The position numbers and the translations under genes are program-made. Under the pieces are notes generated by a model. The model was not told the DNA's origin, did not search any database, and saw only the letters and a program-made list of their open reading frames with translations. Below are positions 3,356-60,133 of a stretch of 64,000 nucleotides of DNA, piece after piece. Origin of the DNA: Candidatus Nanoarchaeia archaeon (GTDB lineage Archaea > Nanobdellota > Nanobdellia > Woesearchaeales > JACQSR01); assembly GCA_035289105.1 (NCBI GenBank), contig DATDYF010000037.1, forward strand, positions 6,418 through 70,417, written 5' to 3'. The stretch's first letter is position 1, and every line of letters starts with the position of its first letter.

Positions 3356-3396
3356 GGCAAGCTTAATAAATCAAATATCTACCTCCTTATCTGAAT

Positions 3397-3602: not shown

Positions 3603-3649
3603 TTTTTTTCTCCCAAACAATTAAAAACCAGAACATATTCCCCTTCTTT

Positions 3650-22236: not shown

Positions 22237-22284
22237 ATGCTTGGTGCTGCTTTTCATTCCCAATTTCGAGGCTTAACAAGCCTA

Positions 22285-22400
22285 TTATCCCCGAATCATA
22301 GATTTTTTCCAGGTTATGTGCCATTTTTTTGCGAGAAAATTTGGTTTTTCTAGGTTAGGCGTAATTTCAACAATATGTTTCTTAAGAAAGGACAACTATT
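22285..22400 (-). pseudogene. Frameshifted remnant of a third MNT-type nucleotidyltransferase
   Basis: About 100 nt (22285-22385) is about 85 percent identical to 41597-41698 inside the intact NTase gene. The reverse translation 'KKHIVEITPNLEKPNFLAKK' then shifts frame at an A-run and stops. Confidence 0.5.
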
Positions 22401-22460
22401 GCTCATTTATTTTTGCCCGTGAGTATAGGATGAATTGTTAGGACCTTAAAAATGTCAGAA

Positions 22461-22608
22461 TTTTCCACTAGTCTGGGACTAGTGGCAAGCATTGCTTCAT
22501 CATAATTCGAGAGCTGAAAATTCTGAGCATGCTCAAGAACCACCGGTCTTGCAAGGGAGTAATTGCGTTCGCAACATTCCACCGGTCTATGACCGGTGGT
22601 TCTTGACA
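22461..22608. mobile_element. MITE/PATE-like palindromic element, copy 1. Hairpin CCACTAGTC-tgg-GACTAGTGG at the left. Internal box CAAGAACCACCGGTC. Hairpin CCACCGGTC-tat-GACCGGTGG plus GGTTCTTGACA at the right.
   Basis: Same architecture and near-identical right end as the approximately 140-bp insertion at 53812-53953 that disrupts relE. Confidence 0.42.
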
Positions 22609-25161: not shown

Positions 25162-25437
25162 ATGGCACGAAAAAACGATTATGACTGGATAAAAATAGTT
25201 GCCTTGTTCATATCGGTTGTTGTGGTGCTAATCATAGCAATAAGCATACGGAATGGGCTAACATCGGATAATATACTTTCAGGGGCAATTACCTTTAAGG
25301 GGCCCAACCCCCATTTATATACTGGACCTAATCCTTTCGGGGAACCTGTTGATATGGAAGCAGCTGTTGCTAGTTATTGTGGCAAAGGTATCTTAGATGC
25401 GGCCCTTGAGGCAAATATTTGTGGAGTGCCACAATGA
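25162..25437 (+). CDS. Small membrane-anchored protein (91 aa). Overlaps the start of the giant gene.
   Basis: Starts 'MARK' within 'aaaatggcacgaaaaa'. The same start context 'aaaatggcacggaaaa' recurs at the giant gene. One TM helix. Confidence 0.42.
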   Translation: MARKNDYDWIKIVALFISVVVVLIIAISIRNGLTSDNILSGAITFKGPNPHLYTGPNPFGEPVDMEAAVASYCGKGILDAALEANICGVPQ

Positions 25438-28400
25438 AAATGGCACGGAAAATAAGGATTTTGTTGCTCGTTTCTTTGATTACCATCATTTCGGCATTTA
25501 GCGCATCAGCAGCAGACTGCGGAAATGGCATCAAGGATTGCGAATGCGGGGATACTGTTGTAGCAGATTATACGTTTAGCTCTGACCTTGTCTGCGACGG
25601 CTCTTCAGGCCCTGTTAGCGGCCTTGTTGTGGGGAGCGATGTGCAGTTGAGCTGTGCTCCTGATGTTAAGATTGAGTGTGCTCCTGGAGTCAAGGATGGA
25701 GGGTCTTGCGAAACTGGAATTTCTATTTCTGCCAGCAACGATATAAGCATAACAGGCTGCACAATCATCGGATGGGATCGCGGAGTAAGGATAGGCAGCG
25801 GCTCTAGCAACATCAATATTACCCTAAACAAAATCTTGCACAACATTCAAGGCATTTTGGTTACGGGAGCCGGAAATAACATCACAATCAGTTATAACAC
25901 TGTATCAGGAAATGGGGTTGAATCTTCCCCTGGGGAAGGAGGGGTTTTGGGAAATTGCGGCGATGGAATAGACAATGATGCAGACACACAAGTGGATTGC
26001 GCGGACAGCGAATGCTCTTTTGATGTCCTGTGCGGAGGGCCTGGGCAGGGATACTTCGGCGGCAGCATCATGGTCTTGACTGTCCACGGCCAGGACAATA
26101 TCCAAATCATCGGGAACACAATTAACGACACTTTTGTATTCGAAAACAGGGGCGCCATTCATATCGGAGGCAGTAATGGCAATATTTCCAATCTTGTAAT
26201 CAGCAACAACACTATATATAATGTTCCCCTCTTCCCGGGAATATCTTTCTCCTTTGTCGGGATTATCAATTTGACGATAAGCAACAACTCGTTAACCAAT
26301 GTCGGAATAGGACTTGGATTTGGTTTTGCTGCGCCAGTTGAAAATGGCATCATCTCGGGAAACAGCGTGACCTGTTCAGGATTGAGTGCTACTCTTGGAG
26401 ATATCGGCATGATGGTAGCGGGAACAGCGGATGTCACCGGTAATATGGTTAATGACTGCGACATAGGCATATTTGCTACATTCGCAGGTCTTGCCCCGGG
26501 ATTTGTGCCCTCTCCAATATCCATTGACGCAAACACAGTAACTTCAAATTTCGGCACTGGAATCTGCACAGACATAGCCTTTGCCACTCTTGAAAACAAC
26601 GTGATATCCAATGGCATTATTGGAATTGCAGACCTCCTTGAGGAGTTTGACCCCGGCAACTGGCAGTCTGGAATAACAATACTCTTTAACTCTTATGCCG
26701 CTGTCCAGAAGGAAATATGCCGGGTTAGATCGCCTCTTGTTGGAGGATGCTTGCAGTTTGCAGAAGACGCATTGGCCGGAACGGTTAATCTGGATGCTTT
26801 GTGCGGTACAGGAGAGCCGCCGTTCTTTTGCCCTATTCAATTTAATTTCATTGTTGGCGGGCAGTTGTATGATGCTCCGGGAGGGGTTGTATATGTTTTC
26901 AAAGAATCAGAAGCCCAGGCTTGCGGCATAGACACCAGCGACGGTGTCCAGGATTATGAGTCGGGTTTGCCTTTCGGCTGTCAGGCTATAACTCAGACTT
27001 GGACTTGCAATGGAATTGCTGGTGGAACATGCAGCATAACGTTAGGTGATCCAGGGCCGGCAGGATATGTTGCGATTGCTTTCGATCATCCTCCAGGCTC
27101 ACAACCGCCGCCTAGTGTAGCTGGTGCTGCCGTATTCGGCGAATCATTATGCGGGGGCCAAGTTGATATCAATGAATTTGGCGGGGAAACCAACTGCGGA
27201 GACGGCATAGACAACGACAATGATGGAAGAATTGATTGCCAGGATGGTGATTGCCAGGGGTCTCCAAGTTGCCCAGGCTGTGTAGTTACCATGAACTGGG
27301 TTGACGAAAACCAACAGCCAGTTAATGCGCCATATGGGAATATTTTATTGCTTTCCTACGATGAAATTAACAATGATTGCGGTATCGACCTCAGTCAGGG
27401 AGTTACTACGGACATCTTCCAGGTATTCGGAAACCCATGTATTACCCAGGTACAAATTTGCGGATTATTCAGCGGAGAATCATTGTCAGACGGGCAATGC
27501 GTCAGCCAGGTTAACATAGCCGCTGGCGACCAAATTGTTGCAGTTGCAATTGGCTCTTTTGGCGCTGAGGAAATCCAGAGTGTGCAGGATTCATGCGAAA
27601 ACGGCTTGGATGATGACGGCAATAACCTTGTAGATTGTGCTGACCCGGCTTGCGCCCCTGCAAGGAATTGCGGACCTTCAAACTCCTTGGTTGGAGGGGG
27701 AATATTTGGGCCACAGGCATGCGGAGGCTCAGCAACAATCGGTCCCCTTGGAGGTCCAGAAGGGTGCCCTCTCACGTTTACTGCATTTGGTGAAAACAAC
27801 AACCCAGTTCCTGACGGTTCGTATATATTTACCTTGGAAACAGCTGTTATTAGCACCATTCCCTACGAATCACCTCAAGGATCGGGCAATTTTATCCTGA
27901 TAGATCCTTCAGATGGCATCGACTTTGATGAATGGTTTGGATTGCTCATCGCAGCTCAAAATGGGCCTCCGCCTGGATTAGACGGTGGGTGTATCTCGCC
28001 CCAAGGCCAGCCAATCCCAACCAGTGGCGGAACCTGTCAGGGAAGTTTAGGGGAACTTTTCCCCGGGAATCCTAATGCACCACACACCGTGGTTGTGCTC
28101 TACGATGACTTTATGAATCCAACACAAATAATTTCACAGAACTATAACTTCCTTACTTGTGGTGGACAGGTTATTATTGGAGAAAGCGGTCCTGAAGTTG
28201 GCGATTGTACAATTACCTATAGCTTTGTCGATGGCCAATCGCAGCCTATCGATGCTCCGAATGGAGGGGTTGTCATATTTAGCCAGAACGCGCTGCAGGC
28301 ATGCGTTGGTACATTTCCGCCCCCGGAGCCAGGAGAAGAGGATTGCAATGCTATCTTTAATCCGTCAGATGGGGTCATGGGCGGTGAAATTAGATGCGCC

Positions 28401-31400
28401 TTTACCTGCCCCGGTGCAAATGTAGGTACCTGTCCCATTAATCTATTTCAGGGAACTCCTGGAATTCCAGGTGGAAGCTGTACCTCCACTATTCTTGGTT
28501 CAGCAAGTCCCGATTACATGATAGCAATTGCTTTGGATACATTTAGTGGGCCGCCTAGCCTTTTTGGCACAGCAACCTTTACAGATGCTGAGTGCGGAAC
28601 AGAGATAATTCCTGGCCAGGTTACGATAGTGGCCGTAGGCGGACCCCCTCCAGGTGCGCTTCAGGTGCTTGTCCTGGAAGGTTCAAACCCCCCAGTAAGC
28701 CCGCCAGGTGCAATAGTCCTTGCCTTTGACGCCACTCAGCTTGAGGCCTTTTTGGGAACTGCTGTTCCTTATGATTTGTCTCCCACGCAGATGCAGAATT
28801 TATTTGCAGATTTAGACCTTGGGCCGGGAGCCGGACAATCTGGCTTTATAGGCGGATGTTTCGGCGAACAGGGGCCTTCACCAACAGGTGCAAATGGCAT
28901 GTGTGATTTGTCATTATTCTTCGGAGATCCAACAGGCCCTGTTGTTGTATTGGCATTCTTGAATTTAGATTTTCAGGCGCCAGATCCTAATTTTATTAAG
29001 ACAAGAGGAGTATACATCGATGGGCCGCCGCCCTCTCCAATCACCATCATCTTCCCCGCCCTTAACCTTTTTGTAGAGAGCGTTACTGCTGCCTCGCCAA
29101 TGGTCTCAGTTACTGCAGGGGCAACAGATGACACAATTGCATACCTTACCCTTTTCGATGGAAGTCCATTCGCCGGTGCAATCCGTATTGAAACAAGGGC
29201 AGTTGCCTTAAGGGTAAATGCTCCAATAACGGAAGTATTTGAAGTGCCGGACAGCCCCTCCACAACCGGAGGAAGCCTTCATGCATTCTTTGCGCAGGTT
29301 TCACCGATTAACGACCTCTTCCCGCAGGATAATGTAAAAGCAGAGGTAAGGCCAAGCATCCTGGCATCTGTAACTAGCAGCAGCAGCACAAAATCCAACT
29401 CTGTCCGTGATTTCTCCTTCACAACAAGTGTTGATGATTACGTTCCTTCCGCAGCCGATTCATTGGTTATCATCGTTCCTGATTTCGGCAAGAGCAAAGC
29501 AGATTATAGCGCCATTGCAGAAAAGCTTGCGCAATCAGAAAAACGGGTATTTGTCATTGACCCTGTTGGGTATAAGGGAACAACCAGTACGGTAACCACC
29601 AGCGACCCCCTCTTCAAAGGGAACAACCTCCGAAAATGGAAAGAGAAGGACCGATTATTGCCTATTTCTGCACAGTTGTGCGCTCTTATTCCTCAATTGA
29701 AGGCCGAAACTGGCCTTGCCAGTGCAACAATCATCGGGGATGGCATGGGCGGGGCAATAGTTAACACCCCGGAATTGGTCTGTTCAGCGCAGGCAAATGC
29801 TTTGGTTTCTACGGGGGCTTACTGCAAGCCGGTCACTTTCAGCGAAGGCGGCCCAAAATCCGCTGTTCCGTATTTCAATCTTAAGGACGGAAAAACCCCA
29901 TGTGAACTGCCCCCTTCATCAGTGCCCTCTTTGGTTTTGCAAGGTGATGAAGAGAAGCCGCAGGGGGATTTGTGGTTCTTCAAGTTCAAGAACAAGAAGC
30001 CAGTTACCTACGGCCTTATCCAGGGCGCCCAAGATTCATTCATAACAAACAGTTTCGCCGGAACACCGGAGTTTGATAATGCAGAGATATACATCAAATC
30101 CTTTATCGAAAAGGAGACAGGCGGTGCATATACTCAGTTGGAGAACGACCTTAACTTGAGGCCGGAGCTTGTCCATCTTTTATTGGAAGATGTCAGGGCA
30201 AATGATGATGCGGTAAAGCCCAAAGACACTCTTGTTTCCAATGATGGCTTCAATCTTTTCGCCATTGAAAGCGCAGACTTAAGCAGCACCCCCACAGGAT
30301 GGGCTGTTGGCTCTGTTGTGGATATCGAAGATGTCAAGGACGACTTTGCCAACTTCATGACCAACGCCCTGAAAATCAGCGCAGGCGAAGCAACTCAAAA
30401 GGTATTTGTTAAGGGAAGCTTTGAAAATCCCGATTCAGGCCAGCTTGTTTTGAACTACAAGGTTCTTGCCCCAAGCACCAACCCGGTTGACAGCTCCGCA
30501 AAACTAAGGCTGGACTTCAAAGACATGCAAGGCAACTCGCTTGCCTGCATTGAATTCCATTCCACAAACCTTCCGGTAAGTTCCACATGCAGCTTTGCCA
30601 TTGCGGTCTCCTCAGGAAACGACGGCAGGATACAGGAGATAAGCAACATCCCAGTCTCCGAGATACTAAAGTCTGTTGGGGCCTTCACAACCAAGATATT
30701 CTCAGTTGACATCGAAATCAGTTCTGACAGTCCCTTTTATTATGATGATGTCGAACTCCTGCTTGAAGAAGATGTTTTGGAGGTGAATGAAGCAGACTTT
30801 TTGGATTTAACTTCTCACACAGCCACCTTCACATCGCCAATTATAAACATAAATGCGGGAGAGCAATTAACATCCATCCTGCCCCTGTTCGTGGCAGAAG
30901 ATGGCGCATCAATTACCGCTGATGTTCTTGATGAATTTGATATTCCCATAATTTCAGGAATTGAGCTTAATTCTGCAGCTAATCTTATGGCATTCCACGA
31001 AACGCTCAAGGGGCTGGATTCATTAAAAGTGCGGTTCAACCTTGATCCGGGAGTTACGCTGTACAAATACTATGTTGTTGCCAAGCCTGTTGATGTGTTT
31101 GATACAAACATTAATGGGGTGGAGGTAAACTCGCTCTTGCTTGACGAGCAGGGCTCCCATTCCGATTACAGCGTTGCATTTAACCTGAACAACCCTGGTG
31201 ACTTTGACTTAATTTCAGCCGGGGAAACATTAAGCTCCGATGCCATCTCATTCGGTGTTGGTGAAATCTACAATCGCGTGGTAAAAACGGATAATTCAAT
31301 CACAAGGAGCGATGCTAATAATGGAATCACTGAAACCGATGTTAGTAGCTCATCAGGCACTGTTGATTCATTTATAACCTTGTTTGATTCGAGTGTCGAT

Positions 31401-34400
31401 ACGATAACCCAGGATATTAACTTTGGGGCTGGGTGCCATGTTGAGGTGGATGATGTCGTAATGACATCGGCTTTCACAACCAACAAGCTTATAGATATTG
31501 TATGCCCTAATGAAGAATTTACACTGACGCCCTTTTACGGCGCTTCAAATATAGAGTTGAATGAAGTAAAGGTAGACCCTGTCGATGCTACAAAAGACAC
31601 TGTAGGGGATTTGGACAAGCTGGAGGTAAGGGATGACAGCGCACTTACGAAAACAGCCGGAGAGTCTGTTCTTGAGGAAGGATATGACTTTTCCTTGCTC
31701 CAGGACTTCCTGCAAAATGACATTTATCAGTTCCTCCTGGATAACGGAATAAACGATTCGCTTACCCAGTTTTTCAAAAATCAGCTGGATAAGTCAGCAG
31801 ATGGTGTACTCAAGAGAGACCAGGTTTTAGAAACTGCATTCCTTGGCTTGTTGGGCGGGGATAATAATTTCTCAACAATAATGGATACTGAAGTGCAGTT
31901 CACGGCTACAGGCATCAGGCTTATCACAAGGACACAGGGAAATTCAATATTGTCCAGAACCATTGGCATTTCAAGCTCATTAAACTCAGACAGGTTTTCA
32001 ATAAAGGGGCCTGGATTGGCAGAAGGCAAATGCACCTCAACAAGGGCAATCGTCCTGGAATCTAGCCTGATTACGCCTAAAGGCCTTTCTGTCTCGGATT
32101 GCGTTGATATTTTTGTAAGGGGAGAATCAAAGGACCTGGCACAGGACGTTAACAGCATTGACCAGCTTGCAAAAGAAGCCGTTAGCCCAAGGCTTGATAA
32201 GGAAATGGTTGATACTGTGCTTGATTCAGCCAAAGATAACGTAACGCCCAGGCGCGGCGTTATCTCAATAGGCGGCAGCTTTGACATGAGGGATTCAACA
32301 ATATCCGCCTTGGATGACTTGGGCTTTATTGGAATCTCTGTTGCCGGAAACAGCTTTGTTGAAAACTCTGAAGTTTTGGACTTCCAATACTTTCAAAGTT
32401 CAGCGGGATGCAATTTCATTGGCTCAGTATTTGAAAGCAGCGCAATTGACCTTCTTGAGGAGGAAAATAGGAATGCGGCAGAGAACAGAAACAGCGAACA
32501 GCTGGACTTCGCCAGGCAATTCCACGGCGTTTCATGCTCAAGTGTTGATACCGGGCCTGCCAATGCCTTGGACCAAAGCCCCTCAGGCAATTATAAGCCT
32601 TCAGATGTTGCCACAAGCAGCGTAGCTGAGGCCACGCTGAAGATATTTGAGATGGACGACCCTTGTGTTTTGAGTGTGGCAGAGGGAGGCAGTGTTTGCG
32701 ATAAAGTCCTTGCTGACTTGAATGCAAGGGATGTGCCGATAACCATAAGGTCATTTGGCGAGGCAGCAGACCAGCTTAACTTGGCAGATATTGCATTTAA
32801 CCAGGATCTTACTAATATCAAGGTGTCCGAAATTGGAAAAATCCCAAGTTCATTATCCTCCATTACATTCAAGGGCATACCATTAGACCAGATTATGGCA
32901 ACAGACATTCTTGACGAAATAAACAACAATCAAAAAATTGACGAGGTTAACGCCATAAGGACTAATATAGAAAACACAGGGATAGACAATAACGCTGATG
33001 AATTGCTGACGGAGGGCGAGGAGATAGCGCAGCCCGGCCTGCTCGATGCAAATTTAGCTCCAGTCTCGTACAGCGGCTTAATGGTTGAAACACCGGTAGA
33101 AGACCTTGATGTTTGCCTGTTAAGCCTGCCTGACGGAACCGGCATATGCGATGTCCGCATAGACCAGGACACCATAATTGAGGATTTGGGCATAACCTTG
33201 TGCGGCCTGAAAAGAAATGGAGTCAGCATATGCAATATTATAACTGATGACCTGAATGATAACCCCACTTTAGATACAGTGGGATATGAGGCAGAGTACC
33301 AGGTTTCAAAGAACGGCGATGTTGACGTATCAGAGCTTTCATTGGGGGATTTGGCTATCGGCGACAGGGGCGATTCTGTGCCGTTTACTGCATTGGACAC
33401 CTCAATCAATAATGTAAAGTTCTGTGACCTCCAGCTTGAAGGGGTCTCCGTTTGCAATGTAGTTGCAGGCAAAACAGCTGTGGAGCAGGCAACTGACTTT
33501 ACAGGATTGGATGCCTTCGACATTATTCAGAAGCTGGAAAATATTCCCGACATCAGGGAATCTGATTACACTGGCTCCTTTGATTACCTTATGGAGAATC
33601 TTAACTTCTGCGCAAATTATGCTGGTTATATTGACGCTGAATTAAGGAAAGAGAATAATCTCGATTACCTGAGGGTTGATAAGTCATTTAAGTTCGGAAA
33701 TGTGGCCAAGCTCCACATCGATGGCATGTGCAGTGTTCAGTTGGACCAAACAAGCCTGTGCGATTTGGAAGGAAACGATGTATACGGGCCCGTCATACAA
33801 AATTCAGCGGCCATAAGCGATTCCTGCAATAATGCTGCTGGAGACTTTGGGTCATGCGTAACAAACCTCAAGGAGCTTAATTCATGCCAGCTGACAATAG
33901 GCGGAGTTTCGGTATGCAGCGTGGAGGTTTCAAAAGGGCTCATTAACGACCAAACTGTTTATGCCGGATTTAACATAACCAAGCTGCAAATTAATGGGCT
34001 TTGCGCGCTGGCTTACAAGGGAATAAGCATTTGCGACACTTCAATAGATAAGGTGTTCAACTTTACAGAATCCCAGGGCACGCTTGAAGCAGCTACCGGC
34101 GAAGAATTGATATCTGCGTGCGACCTGACCTTTAACGGCATTAACCTGTGTTCTGGCCATCAATTTGATGATGAGTTCTGCGACCAGGCAAAAATAGACG
34201 GCGTAAGCGTATGCAACAGCAGATGGGACAACAGGCTTGTTGATGATGAACTAATCACCGAAGCTGCGCAGGGCCAGGTATTTAATGATGCCCGAGATGG
34301 AGGAACATTCGGCGATGAGCAAAAACAAAGGCTTCTAAGGCCGAGCGTTTGCGACTTGGAGATAAATGGCACCACATTGTGCGATGCCGTTGCTCTAGTA

Positions 34401-37400
34401 ACATTTACCAACACAGTGCTGCCTGGCGAATCACCTGCAGACTTTGTATTGGACCACACCGTACTTGAGTTTGTTAGTATGGATGAAACCAAGGTTAACC
34501 TTCTATTGATAGAGCTCGGGGAGAAATGCAATGAGCTGTTTATCAATGTAACTGATATCATCAACAAAACAATACCTAACATAGAGCATAAGGGAGTTCC
34601 GCTGTCAGAAATGACTTTATGCGATGATGTTGAAATCAATGGCTTAAGCCTGTGCGATGCCAATTTAGTATTGATAAACGATAGCGACATCCTTGATGTG
34701 GTGCTAAATGGGGATGTTGTAGGCCAGATGGATTTAAGGGCCCTCCTCACAAACCTCGTCTTTGCCTTAACTTATGATGTAGGTGGAGAAACATTCAATG
34801 ATGCGACTGGAACAATAGGGGACATATTGGACCTGAGGGAAGTAAGGCTTGGCTCTTCCAACCTTCTCGATAACGTGCTCCTTTCTTCCAATTCCATAAG
34901 GAATAGCGAAGTTGATGTGCTGACAAGGCTATTTATGGATTACTCAATAGGCACCCTCTCGAAACCGCAAAGGACTCTAACATTCGACAATAAGAAGGCA
35001 ATTGAAGTGTTGGATATAACATTAAACTCTTATGACCAATTCAACCTGGATTGCGCTATAGCGAAGGAGATTCAGAGCAAGGTAGATTTGGAGGGCACTG
35101 AAATTGATTCTCCGATAAGCAAGGTTGAGTTGTGCGATGTGTTTGGCATTCCTACACCCTTAAGCAATGCGCAATTTGGAATCAGCTCCTACTCACCGCC
35201 TATTGGAAGTCTTAAGGAGGGCAGCCTAACGGTTAATCTTAACAGCGTAGAGTTTAGCGATTTCACTCTTGAAACGCTGTATAACCTTACTGAGTTCGAT
35301 TCAGAAACATGTGATATTCACAACAATGAATTTACGGATGCAGCTGTATCAATCAATTGCGAATTAAGCGCAACGGGAAATAACTTCTTTGGCAAGGACC
35401 TTAGCGATGGCGGTGACTTAATCCTTGGGTCGCCTGGCGCATTAGTAGTAGCTGTACCGGATGATGACGATAAAGTTGAAATATCCGGAAACAGGTTTAA
35501 TTTCAACCACATGGGAGGCCCTGGATTGGTGGGCGCAGCAGAAGTTGATGTATCTAAAAACGATTTCGTGGACCCATTGTTTAACGCACAATACATAACT
35601 GATTCCAGGAATTATCTGGAGCAGTTCATTGTAAAAGAGAACCTCGACACTGTAGATATAAACGACAACGTGCTTGTTGATAGAGTTGAAAGCAGGATAA
35701 GCAGGGATGAAGCCAAGGAGCTCGCTAATACCGCTGACAAATACAATCTTGTTGACGACAGGTATGCGGATTTAGCTTCGGATAGGTCAGAAATAGCAGA
35801 GCTTAATAGGGCATTAAGCCAGCTTAATGATATAGACATTGAAAGCATCCAGCTGACAAATGAAATTGCCGATATGTTTGGCATAGATATATCGAGAGTT
35901 GAAACATTGCTTAATAGGGAATTAACACCGATAGATATTTCAAACCTCGATGTGGATAACACCCTAAATATAGAGAGGAATTACTACAGGGGCTTTAACA
36001 GTGTTAGGGCATATTTGCCCGAGCTAATAATCCCGGGAAATCTCAACTTTGCTACAGAGACCTCAGTGTTTATTTATCCAAAGAAGCGCGTATCCTTCGT
36101 TGGCAACGCCATCGTTGACAATCCGCCTATAAAAATAAAATCAAAAGAGGCGATTGACATCTCTAAGGTATTATTGCTGAATAACTTCAGGGCTGGCTGT
36201 GAAATTGATGATGCAGCCGGCATGAGAAACTGCGCCGATGTTGAGTTATCAACCATGGCGGAACCGCCAGAGATTTCAGGTGCAACCGCTGCGTCATTGG
36301 ATAGGGATGAGGATACTGTGCCTAACCATGTTGACAACTGCCCATTCACCCCAAATACTGGCCAGGAAGACACGGACTTTGACACTTTAGGGGATATGTG
36401 CGATAACTGCGATGATTTCAACCCTGACCAGTTTGACAGGGACCTTGATGGGATTGGAGATGTATGTGATAATGATAGGGATGGCGACGGCATTGCCAAT
36501 CCGGCAGATGCCTGCCCAAATGCCTTCGATCCGGGCAATTCAGCGGAAATATGCAGTGGTTGTGTTGATTTGGATGCAGATACATTCTACGCCTTTGATG
36601 CGGATGAATGCACTGGGGGCAATGACTGTGATGACAGCAACGCAGCAGCAAACATCTTTAGATTGGAGGCATGCAATAATCTGGATGACAATTGTAACGG
36701 CCAAACTGACGAATCCGTGCTCCAGAGATGCGGTGCTAGCGATGTAGGAGAATGTACTTTTGGAGTTGAAGCTTGCTCAGCAGGAAGCTACATTGGATGC
36801 ACTGCAATATTGCCCACTGCAGAGGTTTGCGATGGCTTGGATAATGATTGCGATGCAATAGTGGATGAAGGGATTGCTCCACAGCAGTGCGAAGTTACTG
36901 ATGCTGGAGAATGCAGATTTGGATTAAGGAGCTGTGAAGGAGGCGCATTCAGTTCTTGTGTGGGCAACATTGATCCAGTAGCAGAGATATGCGATAGCCT
37001 TGACAATGATTGTGATGGGCAAGCAGATGAAAGCGCTGCAGGCGGAGACCTTACAGAGGTTTGTGGCACAGATGTAGGCGCATGCCAAACTGGCGTGAGA
37101 ACGTGCTCTGCAGGAGGATTTGGAGTATGTGTGGGAGAAATTGCTCCCGTAGGGGAGACATCCTTGGCCTGCAACAACATAGATGATAACTGCAATGGAG
37201 TAATAGACGATGGTTATGATAGGGATGATGATGGCTTTACGAGCTGTGATACGCCAAAACCAGACTGCAACGACAACGATCGGTCAATTAATCCGGATGC
37301 GCCTGAAAGATGCAACGATGGCATAGACAACAACTGTGATGGCAAAGTAGACTTTGGCGATACAGTTAACTGCCCTGCTGCCGATAAGGTATCTGTTGAG

Positions 37401-38453
37401 CTGCACACAATAGACCAGGCAAAAACTAATTATTGCGGTGCAGGAAGGGGCAGCTGCAAGGAGCCGATACAAGGTGCTAGGGTAAAAGTCTTTGACAGGG
37501 ATAACGCTGACTTCCAGAGCGCGTTCACCAAGAATCCAAGCGGCACTTTATACGATGTGGTCTATGAGTCTGACATTGGCTTGATTGGCAGCTGCATTAC
37601 TGACAGCAGCGGCAGTTGCCTTGCAGTGGAGCAAGGTGCTGGCACTTACCTAGTTATAATCAAATATGTAGACGAGGAAACAAACTCAAATATATATGTA
37701 GGCAGGCCAAAGTCCCCATCTGACTTCGTTGATGTGAATGGCGACGGCAAAAGGGATATGGCAACAAAAGAAATACAAATAATTAAAGTCCTCGAAAAGG
37801 GCGGCAGGATTACCTTTAGGGGAGGAAGCAAAATCGTTGTTACAGGCTCAGAATTAGTGGTTATTTCAGCTGATAATGTGATTTGGATGAATGACAGGGA
37901 AGTTTATCCGTTCATATTCACTTCAGATGCTGACTGGACTGTGGATGTCTGCATGCAAATACCTGCGGGCTACCGAATAGAAGGTGTGCTGGATGAGAAT
38001 GGAAACGTAGTAACTACGGCAAATTGCGCGCAAACGTTTGTATCCGGCGAGGCTAAAGTAGTTATTTTCTCAGTAGTTGAAGTAGGCAGTCCGGAGCCTA
38101 ATTTCGGATTCACATTAACTACAAAGCATAATGGAAAAACTCAAACGGCAAAGGGGACAATAAATGGCATAAGGCAAAAAACGAAAACCCAATTGCAAAA
38201 GCAAATATCAACTAAAGTTAAGGCAGCTAAACAGGAAATAGCTAATCGCCAAGCAAAAAGCCAAACAAAAGAGACAGCTTCTCCACTAACCTCCAGAGCA
38301 GTAATCTCCAGGGCAGCAATGAGTTCAGCAACAGCATCAGAGCCTGTTGCGCCAAATGGAAATCTGACTTTCATATTCGCAATTTCTTCTATAGCCCTGC
38401 TTGTGTTATTGCTGGCAGTTATATATATCTACAAGGAAAGGGCAGCAAGATAA
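25419..38453 (+). CDS. Giant secreted cell-surface protein (4344 aa). Contains signal peptide, parallel beta-helix, three CGDGIDND Cys motifs, C-x9-C repeat array, TSP3-like Ca-binding repeats, MopE-like Cys-rich repeats, CarboxypepD_reg-like domain and a C-terminal TM anchor.
   Basis: Single uninterrupted 13035-nt ORF. N-terminal 'KIRILLLVSLITIISAFSASA'. PbH1-like 'ISNNTIYNV/ISNNSLTNV/ISGNSVT'. 'NCGDGIDNDNDGRIDCQDGDC' appears three times. 'DTDFDTLGDMCDNCDDFNPDQFDRDLDGIGDVCDNDRDGDG'. 'CDGLDNDCDAIVDE/CDSLDNDCDGQADE'. 'GARVKVFD..TDSSGSC..GTYLVI'. C-terminus '..LTFIFAISSIALLVLLLAVIYIYKERAAR'. Confidence 0.9.
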   Translation: MWSATMKMARKIRILLLVSLITIISAFSASAADCGNGIKDCECGDTVVADYTFSSDLVCDGSSGPVSGLVVGSDVQLSCAPDVKIECAPGVKDGGSCETGISISASNDISITGCTIIGWDRGVRIGSGSSNINITLNKILHNIQGILVTGAGNNITISYNTVSGNGVESSPGEGGVLGNCGDGIDNDADTQVDCADSECSFDVLCGGPGQGYFGGSIMVLTVHGQDNIQIIGNTINDTFVFENRGAIHIGGSNGNISNLVISNNTIYNVPLFPGISFSFVGIINLTISNNSLTNVGIGLGFGFAAPVENGIISGNSVTCSGLSATLGDIGMMVAGTADVTGNMVNDCDIGIFATFAGLAPGFVPSPISIDANTVTSNFGTGICTDIAFATLENNVISNGIIGIADLLEEFDPGNWQSGITILFNSYAAVQKEICRVRSPLVGGCLQFAEDALAGTVNLDALCGTGEPPFFCPIQFNFIVGGQLYDAPGGVVYVFKESEAQACGIDTSDGVQDYESGLPFGCQAITQTWTCNGIAGGTCSITLGDPGPAGYVAIAFDHPPGSQPPPSVAGAAVFGESLCGGQVDINEFGGETNCGDGIDNDNDGRIDCQDGDCQGSPSCPGCVVTMNWVDENQQPVNAPYGNILLLSYDEINNDCGIDLSQGVTTDIFQVFGNPCITQVQICGLFSGESLSDGQCVSQVNIAAGDQIVAVAIGSFGAEEIQSVQDSCENGLDDDGNNLVDCADPACAPARNCGPSNSLVGGGIFGPQACGGSATIGPLGGPEGCPLTFTAFGENNNPVPDGSYIFTLETAVISTIPYESPQGSGNFILIDPSDGIDFDEWFGLLIAAQNGPPPGLDGGCISPQGQPIPTSGGTCQGSLGELFPGNPNAPHTVVVLYDDFMNPTQIISQNYNFLTCGGQVIIGESGPEVGDCTITYSFVDGQSQPIDAPNGGVVIFSQNALQACVGTFPPPEPGEEDCNAIFNPSDGVMGGEIRCAFTCPGANVGTCPINLFQGTPGIPGGSCTSTILGSASPDYMIAIALDTFSGPPSLFGTATFTDAECGTEIIPGQVTIVAVGGPPPGALQVLVLEGSNPPVSPPGAIVLAFDATQLEAFLGTAVPYDLSPTQMQNLFADLDLGPGAGQSGFIGGCFGEQGPSPTGANGMCDLSLFFGDPTGPVVVLAFLNLDFQAPDPNFIKTRGVYIDGPPPSPITIIFPALNLFVESVTAASPMVSVTAGATDDTIAYLTLFDGSPFAGAIRIETRAVALRVNAPITEVFEVPDSPSTTGGSLHAFFAQVSPINDLFPQDNVKAEVRPSILASVTSSSSTKSNSVRDFSFTTSVDDYVPSAADSLVIIVPDFGKSKADYSAIAEKLAQSEKRVFVIDPVGYKGTTSTVTTSDPLFKGNNLRKWKEKDRLLPISAQLCALIPQLKAETGLASATIIGDGMGGAIVNTPELVCSAQANALVSTGAYCKPVTFSEGGPKSAVPYFNLKDGKTPCELPPSSVPSLVLQGDEEKPQGDLWFFKFKNKKPVTYGLIQGAQDSFITNSFAGTPEFDNAEIYIKSFIEKETGGAYTQLENDLNLRPELVHLLLEDVRANDDAVKPKDTLVSNDGFNLFAIESADLSSTPTGWAVGSVVDIEDVKDDFANFMTNALKISAGEATQKVFVKGSFENPDSGQLVLNYKVLAPSTNPVDSSAKLRLDFKDMQGNSLACIEFHSTNLPVSSTCSFAIAVSSGNDGRIQEISNIPVSEILKSVGAFTTKIFSVDIEISSDSPFYYDDVELLLEEDVLEVNEADFLDLTSHTATFTSPIININAGEQLTSILPLFVAEDGASITADVLDEFDIPIISGIELNSAANLMAFHETLKGLDSLKVRFNLDPGVTLYKYYVVAKPVDVFDTNINGVEVNSLLLDEQGSHSDYSVAFNLNNPGDFDLISAGETLSSDAISFGVGEIYNRVVKTDNSITRSDANNGITETDVSSSSGTVDSFITLFDSSVDTITQDINFGAGCHVEVDDVVMTSAFTTNKLIDIVCPNEEFTLTPFYGASNIELNEVKVDPVDATKDTVGDLDKLEVRDDSALTKTAGESVLEEGYDFSLLQDFLQNDIYQFLLDNGINDSLTQFFKNQLDKSADGVLKRDQVLETAFLGLLGGDNNFSTIMDTEVQFTATGIRLITRTQGNSILSRTIGISSSLNSDRFSIKGPGLAEGKCTSTRAIVLESSLITPKGLSVSDCVDIFVRGESKDLAQDVNSIDQLAKEAVSPRLDKEMVDTVLDSAKDNVTPRRGVISIGGSFDMRDSTISALDDLGFIGISVAGNSFVENSEVLDFQYFQSSAGCNFIGSVFESSAIDLLEEENRNAAENRNSEQLDFARQFHGVSCSSVDTGPANALDQSPSGNYKPSDVATSSVAEATLKIFEMDDPCVLSVAEGGSVCDKVLADLNARDVPITIRSFGEAADQLNLADIAFNQDLTNIKVSEIGKIPSSLSSITFKGIPLDQIMATDILDEINNNQKIDEVNAIRTNIENTGIDNNADELLTEGEEIAQPGLLDANLAPVSYSGLMVETPVEDLDVCLLSLPDGTGICDVRIDQDTIIEDLGITLCGLKRNGVSICNIITDDLNDNPTLDTVGYEAEYQVSKNGDVDVSELSLGDLAIGDRGDSVPFTALDTSINNVKFCDLQLEGVSVCNVVAGKTAVEQATDFTGLDAFDIIQKLENIPDIRESDYTGSFDYLMENLNFCANYAGYIDAELRKENNLDYLRVDKSFKFGNVAKLHIDGMCSVQLDQTSLCDLEGNDVYGPVIQNSAAISDSCNNAAGDFGSCVTNLKELNSCQLTIGGVSVCSVEVSKGLINDQTVYAGFNITKLQINGLCALAYKGISICDTSIDKVFNFTESQGTLEAATGEELISACDLTFNGINLCSGHQFDDEFCDQAKIDGVSVCNSRWDNRLVDDELITEAAQGQVFNDARDGGTFGDEQKQRLLRPSVCDLEINGTTLCDAVALVTFTNTVLPGESPADFVLDHTVLEFVSMDETKVNLLLIELGEKCNELFINVTDIINKTIPNIEHKGVPLSEMTLCDDVEINGLSLCDANLVLINDSDILDVVLNGDVVGQMDLRALLTNLVFALTYDVGGETFNDATGTIGDILDLREVRLGSSNLLDNVLLSSNSIRNSEVDVLTRLFMDYSIGTLSKPQRTLTFDNKKAIEVLDITLNSYDQFNLDCAIAKEIQSKVDLEGTEIDSPISKVELCDVFGIPTPLSNAQFGISSYSPPIGSLKEGSLTVNLNSVEFSDFTLETLYNLTEFDSETCDIHNNEFTDAAVSINCELSATGNNFFGKDLSDGGDLILGSPGALVVAVPDDDDKVEISGNRFNFNHMGGPGLVGAAEVDVSKNDFVDPLFNAQYITDSRNYLEQFIVKENLDTVDINDNVLVDRVESRISRDEAKELANTADKYNLVDDRYADLASDRSEIAELNRALSQLNDIDIESIQLTNEIADMFGIDISRVETLLNRELTPIDISNLDVDNTLNIERNYYRGFNSVRAYLPELIIPGNLNFATETSVFIYPKKRVSFVGNAIVDNPPIKIKSKEAIDISKVLLLNNFRAGCEIDDAAGMRNCADVELSTMAEPPEISGATAASLDRDEDTVPNHVDNCPFTPNTGQEDTDFDTLGDMCDNCDDFNPDQFDRDLDGIGDVCDNDRDGDGIANPADACPNAFDPGNSAEICSGCVDLDADTFYAFDADECTGGNDCDDSNAAANIFRLEACNNLDDNCNGQTDESVLQRCGASDVGECTFGVEACSAGSYIGCTAILPTAEVCDGLDNDCDAIVDEGIAPQQCEVTDAGECRFGLRSCEGGAFSSCVGNIDPVAEICDSLDNDCDGQADESAAGGDLTEVCGTDVGACQTGVRTCSAGGFGVCVGEIAPVGETSLACNNIDDNCNGVIDDGYDRDDDGFTSCDTPKPDCNDNDRSINPDAPERCNDGIDNNCDGKVDFGDTVNCPAADKVSVELHTIDQAKTNYCGAGRGSCKEPIQGARVKVFDRDNADFQSAFTKNPSGTLYDVVYESDIGLIGSCITDSSGSCLAVEQGAGTYLVIIKYVDEETNSNIYVGRPKSPSDFVDVNGDGKRDMATKEIQIIKVLEKGGRITFRGGSKIVVTGSELVVISADNVIWMNDREVYPFIFTSDADWTVDVCMQIPAGYRIEGVLDENGNVVTTANCAQTFVSGEAKVVIFSVVEVGSPEPNFGFTLTTKHNGKTQTAKGTINGIRQKTKTQLQKQISTKVKAAKQEIANRQAKSQTKETASPLTSRAVISRAAMSSATASEPVAPNGNLTFIFAISSIALLVLLLAVIYIYKERAAR
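33108..34670 (+). repeat. Array of about 11 degenerate C-x9-C repeats (consensus C-D-L-x-h-x-G-h-S-h-C-D/N) inside the giant protein
   Basis: VCLLSLPDGTGICD, LCGLKRNGVSICN, FCDLQLEGVSVCN, MCSVQLDQTSLCD, SCQLTIGGVSVCS, LCALAYKGISICD, ACDLTFNGINLCS, FCDQAKIDGVSVCN, VCDLEINGTTLCD, LCDDVEINGLSLCD. Confidence 0.6.
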
Positions 38454-40915: not shown

Positions 40916-41368
40916 TCAGGGAGACAATCCTTTTTCCTTTATTATTCTATCAATCTTTTTGATGATGCCGTTATGGAAATCCAATATTTCCTTGGCTTCC
41001 TCGACGCTGACGGTTTGGCCGTAATACTTTGAGCCGTTTCTTTTGTATCTGAACCTATCGAGCGTTTCCAGCATTTGTATATTAAAATTGAATTTTGCAA
41101 GATAGGCAAACGAAGCCTGATGGGAGTAGGATTTATAACCTTCTATTGCTAAAACTGCGTCTGCAAAATCCCTAAGCGCGTCATAGACATTCTCAAAGAC
41201 GATTTTTGGGTAGTTCTGGGTCAACAGTGACTTCGAGTCCTTGATTCTGCTATTCATATCCCTAACAAGTGATTTTGCTAAAGCTAAATCGGGCGCTGCC
41301 TTTTTTACTTCGCCAATCTCAAGGTAATAGTCAAAAGGTTTCATAATCAAGGTAACCAAACAGTACAA
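40916..41368 (-). CDS. HEPN domain protein (partner of MNT)
   Basis: 'FRYKRNGSKYYGQ' paralogous to 21814-22236. Overlaps the upstream NTase gene by 38 nt. Confidence 0.7.
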   Translation of the reverse strand: MYCLVTLIMKPFDYYLEIGEVKKAAPDLALAKSLVRDMNSRIKDSKSLLTQNYPKIVFENVYDALRDFADAVLAIEGYKSYSHQASFAYLAKFNFNIQMLETLDRFRYKRNGSKYYGQTVSVEEAKEILDFHNGIIKKIDRIIKEKGLSP

Positions 41369-41861
41369 CCCCGTTTATTAGGTTGGTATAGAGCTCTTTT
41401 GGAATCTTTCCGTTCTGAACCAGCAGGATATGAATGCCCCTATTTAACATTTTCTCAAATATTTTCGTACTAACCGAATATTTTTCGGAAGTTACTACTG
41501 CAATATCTATGTCGCTTTTCAAGACATCCTCTCCTCGAGAGTAACTTCCAAATAGGATTATGGCTTTCGGGTTGTAGTGCTTTCTCAAAAAGTCTATTAC
41601 CCCGGAATCATAGACTTTTTCCAAGTTATGCAACCTTTTTTTTGCGAGAAAATGCGGGTTTTCTAGGTTTGGCGTAATTTCCACAATATGCTTCTTAACT
41701 TCCCTTTTAACCAGGCTTTCCTTTTCCAGCTCCTCAAGGGCATTAAGGACGCTGTTAGGGTTTACATGGATTTCCCTTGCAAGCTCCCTTATATAGAATT
41801 TCCTGGAGGGATTGTCAAAAATCCTTGAGATTATTTTCTGTTTTACATTCATTTTATACAA
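41331..41861 (-). CDS. Minimal nucleotidyltransferase (MNT) with wHTH
   Basis: Motif 'GSYSRGEDVLKSDIDIAVV'. Paralog of 21278-21817. Confidence 0.8.
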   Translation of the reverse strand: MYKMNVKQKIISRIFDNPSRKFYIRELAREIHVNPNSVLNALEELEKESLVKREVKKHIVEITPNLENPHFLAKKRLHNLEKVYDSGVIDFLRKHYNPKAIILFGSYSRGEDVLKSDIDIAVVTSEKYSVSTKIFEKMLNRGIHILLVQNGKIPKELYTNLINGVVLFGYLDYETF

Positions 41862-50489: not shown

Positions 50490-50492
50490 GGC

Positions 50493-50517
50493 AGCTCCGG
50501 AAATCTTCCGGTTTTTT
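50493..50517 (+). terminator. Conserved hairpin AGCTCCGGAAATCTTCCGG (CCGGAA-atc-TTCCGG) plus T6, copy 1
   Basis: Begins 4 nt after the tatD stop. The same 17-mer recurs at 53375 and 54146. Confidence 0.5.
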
Positions 50518-50556
50518 CTGGGAAGAGTTTATATTTATGAAAGTATAACCAACCTT

Positions 50557-52834: not shown

Positions 52835-52947
52835 TTTTCCTCTTTTTCTGGATTTATAGCTGCTTGTTTTTAAATCTCTTTTGGTTCCGGAAATTCTCTG
52901 GTTTTTCTCGGGTAAAATATATAAAGAGCATTTTTAACCTAACTGCC

Positions 52948-53376
52948 ATGTTAAGCGGCAAAGAGTCAGAGGTGCTTTTGTACCTCCGGGAGGATGCAAG
53001 AAAAAGCCTTGCGGAGATATCAAGGGAGTCTGGAATTCCTGTAGCAACGGTGCATGGCATTGTCAGGAGGCTGAAAAAGAGGGGAATCATAATCAAATAT
53101 GCGTCTCTCATGGATTTTCAAAGGATTGGATATAGCTTAAGGGTAATGATGGCTATAAAGACTGATAGAAAAGCTGAGGTAATGCGGCATTTGTCAAGGC
53201 ACCCAAATGTAAACTCGCTTTCCAAGGCTGCTTCCGGGTGCGATTTCTGCATTGATGCCGTTTTCAGGCATTGCGGGGAGCTGGAACTATTCAAGGAAGG
53301 GCTTCAGAAGTTCAATATAACCTATATCGGAGAGCATAACATGGTTGAGGAGATAAAGGCAGAATCCTCTGTTTAG
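52948..53376 (+). CDS. Lrp/AsnC-family transcriptional regulator
   Basis: HTH 'ARKSLAEISRESGIPVATVHGIVRRLKKRGII' plus RAM domain. Start set at an internal ATG. Confidence 0.78.
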   Translation: MLSGKESEVLLYLREDARKSLAEISRESGIPVATVHGIVRRLKKRGIIIKYASLMDFQRIGYSLRVMMAIKTDRKAEVMRHLSRHPNVNSLSKAASGCDFCIDAVFRHCGELELFKEGLQKFNITYIGEHNMVEEIKAESSV

Positions 53377-53393
53377 CTCCGGAAATCTTCCGG
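53375..53393 (+). terminator. Conserved hairpin AGCTCCGGAAATCTTCCGG, copy 2 (overlaps the TAG stop of the Lrp gene)
   Basis: 17-mer identical to copy 1. Confidence 0.45.
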
Positions 53394-53464
53394 AATTTAT
53401 GGGTTAAGGTTTTTTAAGGGGAGAAGTTTTCATTTCAGCCATGGAAAAGCCTTATACATACCTA

Positions 53465-53494: not shown

Positions 53495-53734
53495 ATGGCT
53501 GCAACTACGATTAAAATTTACGAAGAAACAAAACACGACTTGGACGAGTTTAGGGAATACAAAAACGAAAGTTACGACGAGGTCATTAAAAAAATCGTTT
53601 ACATCGCAAAGGCCTCAAAAAAAGAGCCTAAGCTGAGCAAAGAAGCCATGGAATCCATAGAAAAGGCCCGGGCAAGAATAAGGGCAGGCAGATTTATTAC
53701 CGAAGAGGAAGCCAGGAAGAGGCTTGGATTTTAA
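53495..53734 (+). CDS. RelB/ribbon-helix-helix-type antitoxin
   Basis: 79-aa ORF MAATTIKIYEETKHDL.. with C-terminus 'ARARIRAGRFITEEEARKRLGF'. Its stop overlaps the ATG of the relE fragment (TAATG). Confidence 0.55.
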   Translation: MAATTIKIYEETKHDLDEFREYKNESYDEVIKKIVYIAKASKKEPKLSKEAMESIEKARARIRAGRFITEEEARKRLGF

Positions 53735-54133
53735 TGTACGCGGTGTTTTTTGATGATAAGGCAATCGAATTTCTCGAAAAACTACCTAAAGAGTTAAGCA
53801 AAAGGATTTATACAATGAAATACCACCATTCTATCTGAATGGCGGTATGAGTTGTGCTCAAAAACCACCAGCTAAGGAATGGCGGTATTTCAAGTGTCAA
53901 AAACTCCGTATCGCTATATAATCATGCCACCAGTCTATTGACTGGTGGTTTTTGACAAGAAGACAGTTTCAGCCAAAGAGAATCCTTTTCATTTTTTTGA
54001 GCGGCTTGAAGGGCGGGGTGATTACAAGCTAAGAGTCGGAGACTACCGGGTAATAGCAGATATCAATCAAAAGGAAAGGATAATTGCAGTAACCCTTATA
54101 GGCCACAGGAAAAATATCTATCAGAAACTTTGA
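53734..54133 (+). pseudogene. relE: RelE/ParE-family toxin gene split by an approximately 140-bp insertion
   Basis: N-terminal fragment (53734-53838) 'MYAVFFDDKAIEFLEKLPKELSKRIY'. C-terminal fragment (53945-54133, different frame) 'ENPFHFFERLEGRGDYKLRVGDYRVIADINQKERIIAVTLIGHRKNIY'. Confidence 0.65.
53812..53953. mobile_element. MITE/PATE-like palindromic element, copy 2, inserted in relE. Hairpin TACCACCATTC-tatct-GAATGGCGGTA at the left. Internal box TCAAAAACCACCAG. Hairpin CCACCAGTC-tatt-GACTGGTGG at the right.
   Basis: Splits the relE ORF with a frame change. Shares hairpin and box consensus and the GGTTyTTGACA end with copy 1 at 22461-22608. Exact termini are uncertain. Confidence 0.45.
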
Positions 54134-54145
54134 GTTGAATTTTGT

Positions 54146-54167
54146 CTCCGGAAATCTTCCGGTTTTT
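54146..54167 (+). terminator. Conserved hairpin CTCCGGAAATCTTCCGG plus T5, copy 3
   Basis: Begins 13 nt after the relE fragment stop. Confidence 0.45.
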
Positions 54168-54202
54168 GAGGGGAAACGCTTATTAAAAGATTTTTCCTTC
54201 CT

Positions 54203-59110: not shown

Positions 59111-60133
59111 CTACATTAAAAAACTCCTCAAATTCCCCAAAAACCTCCCAAAATCCTCTGCCTTGACATTGGCTCCGCATGCATTCTCATGCCCTCCCCC
59201 ATAGCCCTCTATTCCAACAAGCGATTTCTGGAGAGCATTAAGTATCGGCTTGCTGCTTCTCAGGCTCATTCTTATTTCGCCGCTCTTCTCCCTTCCGACG
59301 ATAACAATTTTTTTGGGATATCTGTACAGCAACTCATTCGACAATTCGCTGGTAAAGCTCCATTTGTCCGCCTGATAGGTAAAGACAATAAATTTGTCCT
59401 TTCCAGCCTTCTTTTTCGCTTCCTGAAGCAGATCTTCATATTTCTTTTCAATATCTTCATATCTATTCTTTAAGAACTTAGACTGTGCGGTATTCGCCTC
59501 CAAAATCTCCTCAGGCCCGGAAATCCTTGAAAGCACTTTCACAGAGACCATGACATCTTTTGTTGGCCCCTTCAGAAGAAAAGAAAATATCCTTGCTATC
59601 CTCCCAATTTTAGTGTCGAACAATGCCTTTCCCGGACTAATCTTTCCAATTTTGAAATCTGGATATTCTTTGTTAAATTCCACAATAAAGTTAGGTATAT
59701 GCCAGTCCCCTACTGTTCCTACAGCCCCAATCCACGCATCCTGCTTTACTGCATTATAGCAAATGCTTGATGTCGGGTCATTCGAAGCAGGGCTTTTAAT
59801 CATGGGATTGATGCATGTTACCCTATTCAGCTCAATAGGCTGATGATGGTCAATCCATACAATTGGGACATTTACCCTCTCAACAAACTCCTCAAGCACA
59901 ACTGCAACATCCAGAACAAACACCTTGTCAGGCCCGTATTCCTCCACTCTCTCGGCAAATTTCGCATCAAGCCTCGGCACAGTCTTGACTACAATTCCCC
60001 TTCCCTCTTTTTTATATCTGTAAAGCAACAGGAAAGAGCACAGCCCGTCAGGATCATCGTCAAAGAAAAATAAGGGCTTTGAGCATTCATCAAGCTCTTT
60101 TCTTATTCTCTCATAATCCTTCTCTGTCAGCAT
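59111..60133 (-). CDS. DHH-family phosphoesterase (NrnA/RecJ-like)
   Basis: 'FFFDDDPDGLCS' (DHH motif I-II region). 'WIDHHQP' motif. 340 aa. Confidence 0.78.
   Translation of the reverse strand: MLTEKDYERIRKELDECSKPLFFFDDDPDGLCSFLLLYRYKKEGRGIVVKTVPRLDAKFAERVEEYGPDKVFVLDVAVVLEEFVERVNVPIVWIDHHQPIELNRVTCINPMIKSPASNDPTSSICYNAVKQDAWIGAVGTVGDWHIPNFIVEFNKEYPDFKIGKISPGKALFDTKIGRIARIFSFLLKGPTKDVMVSVKVLSRISGPEEILEANTAQSKFLKNRYEDIEKKYEDLLQEAKKKAGKDKFIVFTYQADKWSFTSELSNELLYRYPKKIVIVGREKSGEIRMSLRSSKPILNALQKSLVGIEGYGGGHENACGANVKAEDFGRFLGNLRSFLM

Follow-up and report, generated by a model that had tools for sequence, protein, structure and literature searches.

A relE toxin gene of a DPANN archaeon is interrupted by a miniature element that has the ends of IS200-type insertion sequences

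Introduction

In IS608 (ISHp608), the paradigm of the IS200/IS605 family, the target TTAC is read by the tetranucleotide AAAG lying 5′ of the foot of the left hairpin, and insertion always occurs 3′ of the target (PMC5027513). PATEs (palindrome-associated transposable elements), short elements of Haloquadratum walsbyi, have palindromes near their ends that resemble those of IS605-type transposons, make no target duplication, and lack terminal inverted repeats (PMC3119063). A further described group comprises the REP/BIME and REPIN sequences with their RAYT transposases (PMC3333891, PMC2817692). In the matched passages of a 2026 survey of archaeal insertion sequences (ISs), IS200/IS605 is the most widespread family, and MITEs are mentioned once, in the background section. 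A limited literature search returned no prior description of elements such as those reported here in DPANN archaea.

We analysed a stretch of 64,000 nucleotides from a Candidatus Nanoarchaeia archaeon, hereafter the window. An earlier note on this stretch had described a hairpin-ended insertion in a relE gene, with a second copy elsewhere, and had proposed that both derive from the IS200/IS605 family. Our analysis defines the ends of both copies (copies A and B), places them in a large family with TnpA-bearing relatives, and compares them with the systems above.

Results

A 145-nt insertion splits relE behind an intact relB-like gene

The relB-like antitoxin gene (53495 to 53734, plus strand) appears in the ORF list as a 79-aa frame and matches Pfam DUF7557 (E 2.7e-6); it is intact, as the earlier note had stated. 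Its stop codon overlaps the relE start codon (ATGA overlap). The relE 5′ fragment (53734 to 53811, plus strand) has 26 codons ending in KRIY and aligns with residues 1 to 26 of intact 84-aa RelE homologues. The N-terminal part up to 53811 reads MYAVFFDDKAIEFLEKLPKELSKRIY, after which the frame enters the insert and meets a TGA stop inside it at 53836 to 53838. The 3′ fragment, 58 codons plus stop (KKTVSAKENPF...QKL), lies at 53957 to 54133 on the plus strand, in the +1 frame.

Once exactly 145 nt are removed (53812 to 53956, or an equally long stretch displaced by 1 nt), relE again encodes a protein of 84 aa, which matches Pfam ParE_toxin (PF05016) with an E value of 1.3e-8 over residues 4 to 81; this domain is split in the window as it stands. 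Since a deletion of 146 nt shifts the relE frame, one A belongs to the host, and the element occupies 53812 to 53956 or 53813 to 53957. The insertion and frame change had thus been recognised correctly, but the extent previously given, 53812 to 53953, is too short. As a query, the repaired RelE retrieved 815 homologues, many of them exactly 84 aa long with 70 to 81% identity. In an alignment with 12 homologues no gap falls at the junction, where KRIY^KKTVS stands against the consensus KRIYxKIIS (here and below, ^ marks an element boundary or junction). Intact 84-aa relatives of the interrupted gene therefore exist and align gap-free with the repaired gene.

The same insertion is found in an independent assembly, L148 (ENA ERZ28563825), and the contigs L147, L120, and L121 end inside the element. 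Its presence in independent assemblies means that it is not a chimera of this assembly. At the same relB-relE locus, L148 carries a 105-nt variant of the element without positions 53849 to 53888. This 40-nt difference may have arisen by a deletion or duplication between the 12-nt direct repeats that bound it, or it may be an assembly collapse. No empty relE site was found among contigs encoding an identical RelB: each of them either contains the insertion or stops within the element.

Judging by the truncation, the toxin activity of relE was likely lost through the split. ORFs overlapping copy A are at most 34 aa long, except for a 62-aa C-terminal fragment of relE that starts at GTG 53945. 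This fragment is annotated by NCBI as a 'RelE/ParE family toxin' (P0079) in a Candidatus Nanoarchaeia MAG; the public entry represents only part of a gene. TATATAA (53911 to 53917), which lies in copy A about 28 nt before this GTG, is a possible archaeal promoter for a short-leader transcript, in a region that is not kept in the family.

Copy A has subterminal hairpins and internal complements of its termini

Copy A (145 nt, plus strand, as are all its features; family profile E 1.5e-16) lies directly 3′ of the pentanucleotide TTTAT (53807 to 53811). This target is part of relE (codons Ile-Tyr), at an I-Y/F position that is conserved in RelE homologues. The left guide tetranucleotide AATA (53819 to 53822), the position-wise complement of the TTAT in this target, stands 5′ of the foot of the left subterminal hairpin (53820 to 53848; core CCACCATTC / GAATGGCGG), whose arms ATACCACCATTC (53820 to 53831) and GAATGGCGGTAT (53837 to 53848) form 11 of 12 pairs. 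An exact second GAATGGCGGTAT occurs at 53877 to 53888. The 40-nt internal segment (53849 to 53888) set off by these 12-nt direct repeats holds the box GCTCAAAAACCACCAG (53856 to 53871).

Two further stretches are complementary to the termini. The internal complement of the left terminus (53877 to 53892, the 3′ arm of stem P1) pairs with 53816 to 53831 over 16 nt at 94%, and the internal complement of the right tail (53895 to 53904, the 5′ arm of stem P2, TGTCAAAAAC) pairs with 53948 to 53957. An internal box had previously been described as a repeat of the arm sequence; the exact repeat of GAATGGCGGTAT bears this out, while the box GCTCAARAACCACC is also the reverse complement of the right tail. 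The right subterminal hairpin (53927 to 53948), CCACCAGTC-tatt-GACTGGTGG, has CATG before it and TTTTTGACA after it, and the right tail TTTTTGAC (53949 to 53956) forms the right cleavage end.

Hairpins at both ends had been noted earlier and are present in copies A and B alike. That they are subterminal is correct; that terminal inverted repeats are lacking is not strictly true. The miniature termini are imperfectly similar in inverted orientation: ATGTCAGAA-n-CCAC stands against the reverse complement TGTCAAGAA-CCAC (ATGTCAGAA... at one end, ...TTCTTGACAT at the other). In full ISs this terminal inverted similarity is weaker than in the miniature copies. A scan of the JGI metagenome collection with the left hairpin of copy A yielded one further miniature element of another subtype and two chance hits; the exact subtype of copy A was not found elsewhere in that collection.

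Copy B and the remainder of the window

The second copy is real and runs, at 156 nt, from 22452 to 22607 on the plus strand (profile E 3.8e-30), rather than from 22461 to 22608 as first proposed. It is intergenic, 55 nt upstream of an ATG at 22663. On its left flank, the target AAAA (22448 to 22451, plus strand) is the complement of TTTT at 22461 to 22464. The left hairpin, CCACTAGTC-tgg-GACTAGTGG, occupies 22465 to 22485 (plus strand). The centre of the element (22516 to 22548, plus strand) consists of GAAAATTCTGA, which pairs with 22455 to 22465, then GCATGC, then TCAAGAACCACCGGTC, which pairs with 22591 to 22606. The right hairpin, CCACCGGTC-tat-GACCGGTGG (22579 to 22599, plus strand), is followed by TTCTTGACA / TTCTTGAC.

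Beside copy B lies a decayed MNT fragment (22214 to 22395, minus strand), a frameshifted and N-terminally truncated HTH-nucleotidyltransferase. This fragment and the intact MNT at 41331 to 41861 (minus strand) are paralogues, with 65 nt that are 89% identical, and the similarity ends 57 nt before copy B. The intact MNT is followed by an overlapping 150-aa ORF (40916 to 41368, minus strand), which has no Pfam match and might be called HEPN-like on a reading of its sequence.

A search of the window with the family profile returned only copies A and B, both on the plus strand, and the hairpin pattern occurs two to three times in the window as against none in 100 shuffles. As single strands, both strands of both copies fold better than shuffled sequences (z −5.6 to −8.0). 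The window had been said to lack tnpA and tnpB, and our non-exhaustive searches agree: tblastn with the TnpA of locus L083 (see below) found no tnpA in the window, and a Pfam scan of ten ORFs of 346 to 495 aa, all in their size range but 59111 to 60133 (340 aa), found no transposase. Elsewhere in the window lies a single 4344-aa ORF (25419 to 38453). Within it lie two members of a 35-nt direct-repeat family, which from their sequence would encode a DGIDNDNDG-like motif of the calcium-binding type.

Other palindromes are also present. The palindrome CTCCGGAAATCTTCCGG occurs in four copies (50490 to 50535, 52880 to 52925, 53372 to 53417, and 54141 to 54186), mostly with a T run after it. These copies sit in gaps just past the ends of ORFs, one of them overlapping a stop codon, and have the look of terminators or of another small family of repeats. 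A similar ctccggaagatttccgg stands beside a miniature copy in another genome (flank of L119).

The elements recur in many DPANN genomes

We scanned one genome per species with the right-end pattern CCACNNGTC-N3-5-GACNNGTGGTTNTTGA and obtained at least 119 loci, where we estimate that about one would be expected by chance. Among the matches listed, all but three lie in archaeal MAGs, the majority of which bear DPANN labels (Woesearchaeota, Pacearchaeota, Nanoarchaeota, and Micrarchaeota). Some genomes hold many copies: at least eight matches lie in PCYA01, at least six in CAYNHV01, and at least five each in JACPID01 and CAYMCA01. Six CAYNHV01 copies of 165 nt have unrelated flanks and the same sequence, apart from a single base that differs in each of two of them. 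Copy number, which had been named as a check on the proposal, thus supports a mobile element.

Miniature elements span 105 to 167 nt and keep the layout ...GTGGAATTCTGA-GCATGC-TCAARAACCAC-(about 30 variable nt)-CATG-hairpin-TTYTTGACA. Conservation of the right end stops after TTGACA (C 95%, A 92%, then at most 0.34 bit, which is background). In 89 of 122 copies both free positions of the right hairpin are complementary, and at least five pair types occur. All-against-all clustering of 1686 ORFs from the 119 loci gave no recurrent neighbour protein. TnpB-sized ORFs just upstream of the right end at 11 loci were rejected as partners; judged by their translations, they look like regular cellular genes, among them genes for surface proteins and ribosomal protein S2.

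This distribution bears on whether the palindromes could instead be protein-binding or regulatory sites, such as operators or terminators, of local genes. The right hairpin with its T run does resemble a terminator, and other small palindromes (CCGGAAATCTTCCGG) recur after genes of the same region. Against such a role, the whole unit of about 150 nt is repeated in many genomes at more than 100 places of unrelated context, it breaks a coding sequence with the precision of a single base, and its ends are common to transposase-bearing ISs. We therefore regard local regulatory sites as an extremely improbable explanation.

Some of the element-bearing MAGs, including L001, L002, L006, L011, and L016, are titled 'uncultured Methanosarcinales'; these are TPA assemblies, many of them binchicken co-assembly bins. 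The elements being otherwise restricted to DPANN archaea, these labels are probably wrong.

Relatives that encode TnpA are mobile insertion sequences

One locus, L083 (Woesearchaeota RIFOXYB1_FULL_31_16), holds an IS of 680 bp with a 154-aa ORF that matches Pfam Y1_Tnp over its full length (E 5.6e-21). Its left end, TTTAA^TTGTTAATT-CCACTGGTC-ttt-GACCAGTGG, lies 145 nt upstream of the tnpA start. Its right end, CATG-CCACCGGTC-tat-GACCGGTGG-TTCTTGACA, lies 21 nt past the tnpA stop and is identical to the miniature right end. A Y1 transposase gene is thus flanked by the same right end as the miniature copies together with a cognate left end, so that the search for transposase genes called for in the earlier note also speaks for its proposal. 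The family right end also follows the 3′ end of tnpA in L091 and L152. The latter, at 3130 to 3690 of a predicted viral contig (IMG/VR UViG_3300009031_000713), has tnpA and the family right end together with a different left hairpin, GGCCTAG-ata-CTAGGCC; this IS may be chimeric or decayed.

Homologues of the L083 TnpA fall into 97 clusters, most of them located on short contigs; the few that carry a source name are labelled Woesearchaeota, Nanoarchaeia, or archaeon GW2011_AR18. The tnpA genes P0136 and P0216 stand between their own left and right ends at four to five different sites with differing flanks. One IS reads TTTAA^TCGTTAATT-CCACTGGTG..CACCAGTGG ... CCACCGGTG-tag-CACCGGTGG-TGTCAGCGAGCATTTGAC^ and is followed by five different right flanks; another reads TAAAA^TTAGTTTT-CCACCAGTG ... 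TTGACA^ and is followed by four. The TnpA-bearing relatives are mobile ISs of the IS200 group that encode TnpA only, without TnpB.

A different TnpA, encoded at L119, was considered as a partner and rejected. It belongs to a second, unrelated IS200-type element (6920 to 7330; 136-aa TnpA) with different hairpins, namely CCCCAACC-ttta-GGTTGGGG followed by AGAAGGTCAT. Upstream of the miniature copy in L014 another different hairpin is likewise followed by the same AGAAGGTCAT.

The behaviour of the tnpA genes separates these elements from REP or REPIN sequences maintained by a domesticated, single-copy RAYT transposase. In favour of that explanation, the miniature copies look like two extended palindromes, comparable to inverted REP doublets, and JGI labels two of the TnpA homologues 'REP element-mobilizing transposase RayT', which is a generic COG name. 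However, the related tnpA genes have their own ends and occur at four to five sites with different flanks, which is IS behaviour, and the miniature copies have distinct left and right ends, a target on the left only, and a representative inside a gene. An origin of this kind is accordingly very improbable.

The left flank is a specific target and covaries with the guide bases

Across 63 flank/guide pairs from miniature copies and ISs, some of which share one site, the left flank is TTTAA, TTTAT, TTAAT, or TAAAA; copy A has TTTAT and copy B TAAAA. The guide AATT goes with the target TTAA in 24 of 35 cases, AATA with TTAT in all four, including copy A (AATA at 53819 to 53822, TTAT at 53808 to 53811), and TTTT with (A/T)AAA in six of seven, including copy B. 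Overall, guide and target are complementary at 198 of 252 positions, a value reached by none of 10000 permutations, with the left ends of the pairs anchored heuristically by a permissive pattern of our own choice. In a subfamily with the guide TATA, the match between guide and target is partial only. The pairs define a left-flank target of the TTWAW type that covaries with the tetranucleotide 5′ of the left hairpin; the target check called for earlier is thus in favour of the proposal.

No target duplication accompanies insertion: in relE the flank is present exactly once, and beyond TTGACA the right flank shows background composition. An A is conserved at two places, as the element's first base and directly behind TTGAC, leaving a boundary ambiguity of 1 nt. 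Near-symmetry of the elements had suggested mobilisation from the bottom strand, that is, from either strand; this was rejected, as the left flank alone is conserved.

The flanks also bear on another alternative, a MITE of the classical inverted-repeat type whose double-stranded ends would be acted on by a DDE transposase; the imperfect inverted terminal repeats (ATGTCAGAA...CCAC and GTGG...TTCTTGACAT) could be cited in its favour. Such an element would be at odds with the single flank copy left in relE, without target-site duplication, and with a left flank that is conserved while the right flank is random. Moreover, no DDE gene recurs near the copies, and it is a Y1 gene that carries the same ends. 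We regard a DDE-type MITE as extremely improbable.

Miniature copies pair their centre with both termini

The miniature copies carry reverse complements of both termini in their centre. In the stem formed with the right tail, a T in the tail is matched by an A in the box in 48 of 48 copies and a C by a G in 40 of 40, with no discordant case. In 24 copies, which were partly selected by this very pairing and whose arms come in 19 different sequences, the stem formed with the left terminus comprises 9 to 15 perfect base pairs; in the same partly pairing-selected set, the mean is 12.3 with the own partner as against 6.0 with mismatched partners. Since the left ends of different subfamilies were misaligned when 25 copies were aligned with MAFFT, stem conservation was counted per sequence instead. 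The two long stems share sequence with the TnpA hairpins, and the guide bases are hidden within them. None of the three full ISs examined has such internal complements.

Two long stems with extensive compensatory change might also be expected of a structured RNA, either a guide RNA of the TnpB/IscB type or an intron whose splicing would keep relE functional. The right end abuts a variable flank, as omega-RNA scaffolds do, and a TATA-like box lies inside copy A. Yet an Rfam scan of the whole window gave no match, and neither tnpB nor iscB stands beside any copy or in the related TnpA-only ISs. The unrelated flanks of the different copies would offer no exon pairing for splicing, and single-stranded DNA explains the stems equally well. 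An RNA gene thus seems very improbable to us.

Discussion

We conclude with high confidence that copies A and B are non-autonomous miniature derivatives of IS200-type elements (IS200/IS605 family, PATE-like), widespread in DPANN archaea. The earlier assignment to IS200/IS605-derived miniature elements is borne out by the at least 119 loci, by the Y1_Tnp gene with the same ends, and by the target rule. This assignment draws on direct observations, namely the precise insertion, family membership, ends common with TnpA-bearing ISs, target specificity, the absence of duplication, and guide/target covariation.

By analogy with IS608, the chemistry would be single-stranded and mobilisation would occur in trans. 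The miniature element encodes nothing and would keep only what is recognised on one strand, that is, two hairpins and short termini. A Y1 (HUH) TnpA of the L083 type, whose gene may lie in another part of the genome or may since have been lost, would bind both top-strand hairpins in trans and cut after the target and after TTGAC(A), so that the top strand leaves as a single-stranded circle. This circle would then be pasted 3′ of a new TTWAW site in single-stranded DNA without duplication of the target, which the four bases just 5′ of the left hairpin would select by base pairing. Copy A would have landed in this way 3′ of TTTAT in relE, splitting the toxin gene and leaving the upstream relB-like gene intact. 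The scheme predicts an RE-LE circle junction ...GGTGGTTTTTGAC^ACAATGAAATACC and an empty relE site AAAAGGATTTAT^AAGAAGACAG.

In common with IS200/IS605 elements of the IS200 group, the family has a subterminal hairpin near each end, inserts 3′ of a short specific sequence that is not duplicated, carries a guide tetranucleotide complementary to the target, and includes full-length relatives that encode a Y1 HUH transposase. It differs in that the window copies are gene-less and in that the distances between cleavage site and hairpin are short and near-symmetric (11 to 14 nt on the left, 8 to 9 nt on the right). The inverted terminal similarity and the internal complements of the miniature copies are likewise foreign to the classical description.

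Like PATEs, the elements are too short for a transposase, have near-terminal palindromes, and produce no target duplication. In both, the conserved 'terminal oligonucleotide' is really the target, and core deletions between direct repeats known from PATEs can be compared with the 40-nt difference between the window and L148. In contrast, PATEs are haloarchaeal and unrelated in sequence to the present elements of DPANN hosts, and the PATE partner is an IS1341-type TnpB, whereas the partner IS here has TnpA only. Internal complements of both termini, conserved by compensation, and imperfect terminal inverted similarity further set the present family apart from PATEs.

With REP/BIME and REPIN sequences and RAYT the elements have in common short palindromes related to IS200/IS605 hairpins, an association with Y1 transposases, and the look of a doublet. 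They differ in that the Y1 genes here belong to mobile ISs with their own ends, and in having polar left and right ends, a left-flank target, and one copy inside a gene. The relE insertion is a clear-cut further case of an element type already known and not a new mechanism.

The internal complements, kept by compensatory change, correspond approximately to the reverse complement of the RE-LE junction. Tentatively, they might constitute a cis-acting self-synapsis device or a switch of non-autonomous IS200-type elements, a possibility that we consider less probable than its opposite. A single strand would then fold into two long stems that bring the cleavage sites within a few bases of each other, and by turns these stems would mask or uncover the transposase hairpins and the guide bases. 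If so, the miniature copies would be more than deletion remnants and would have acquired the complements, which we put forward with similar reserve.

An abundant family of IS200-derived miniature elements is hereby documented across DPANN archaea. In these very small genomes such repeats break assemblies and inactivate genes, and the gene hit here is a toxin whose antitoxin survives. The natural series of guides and targets (AATT/TTAA, AATA/TTAT, and TTTT/AAAA) supports the target-choice rule of IS608 in a distant lineage.
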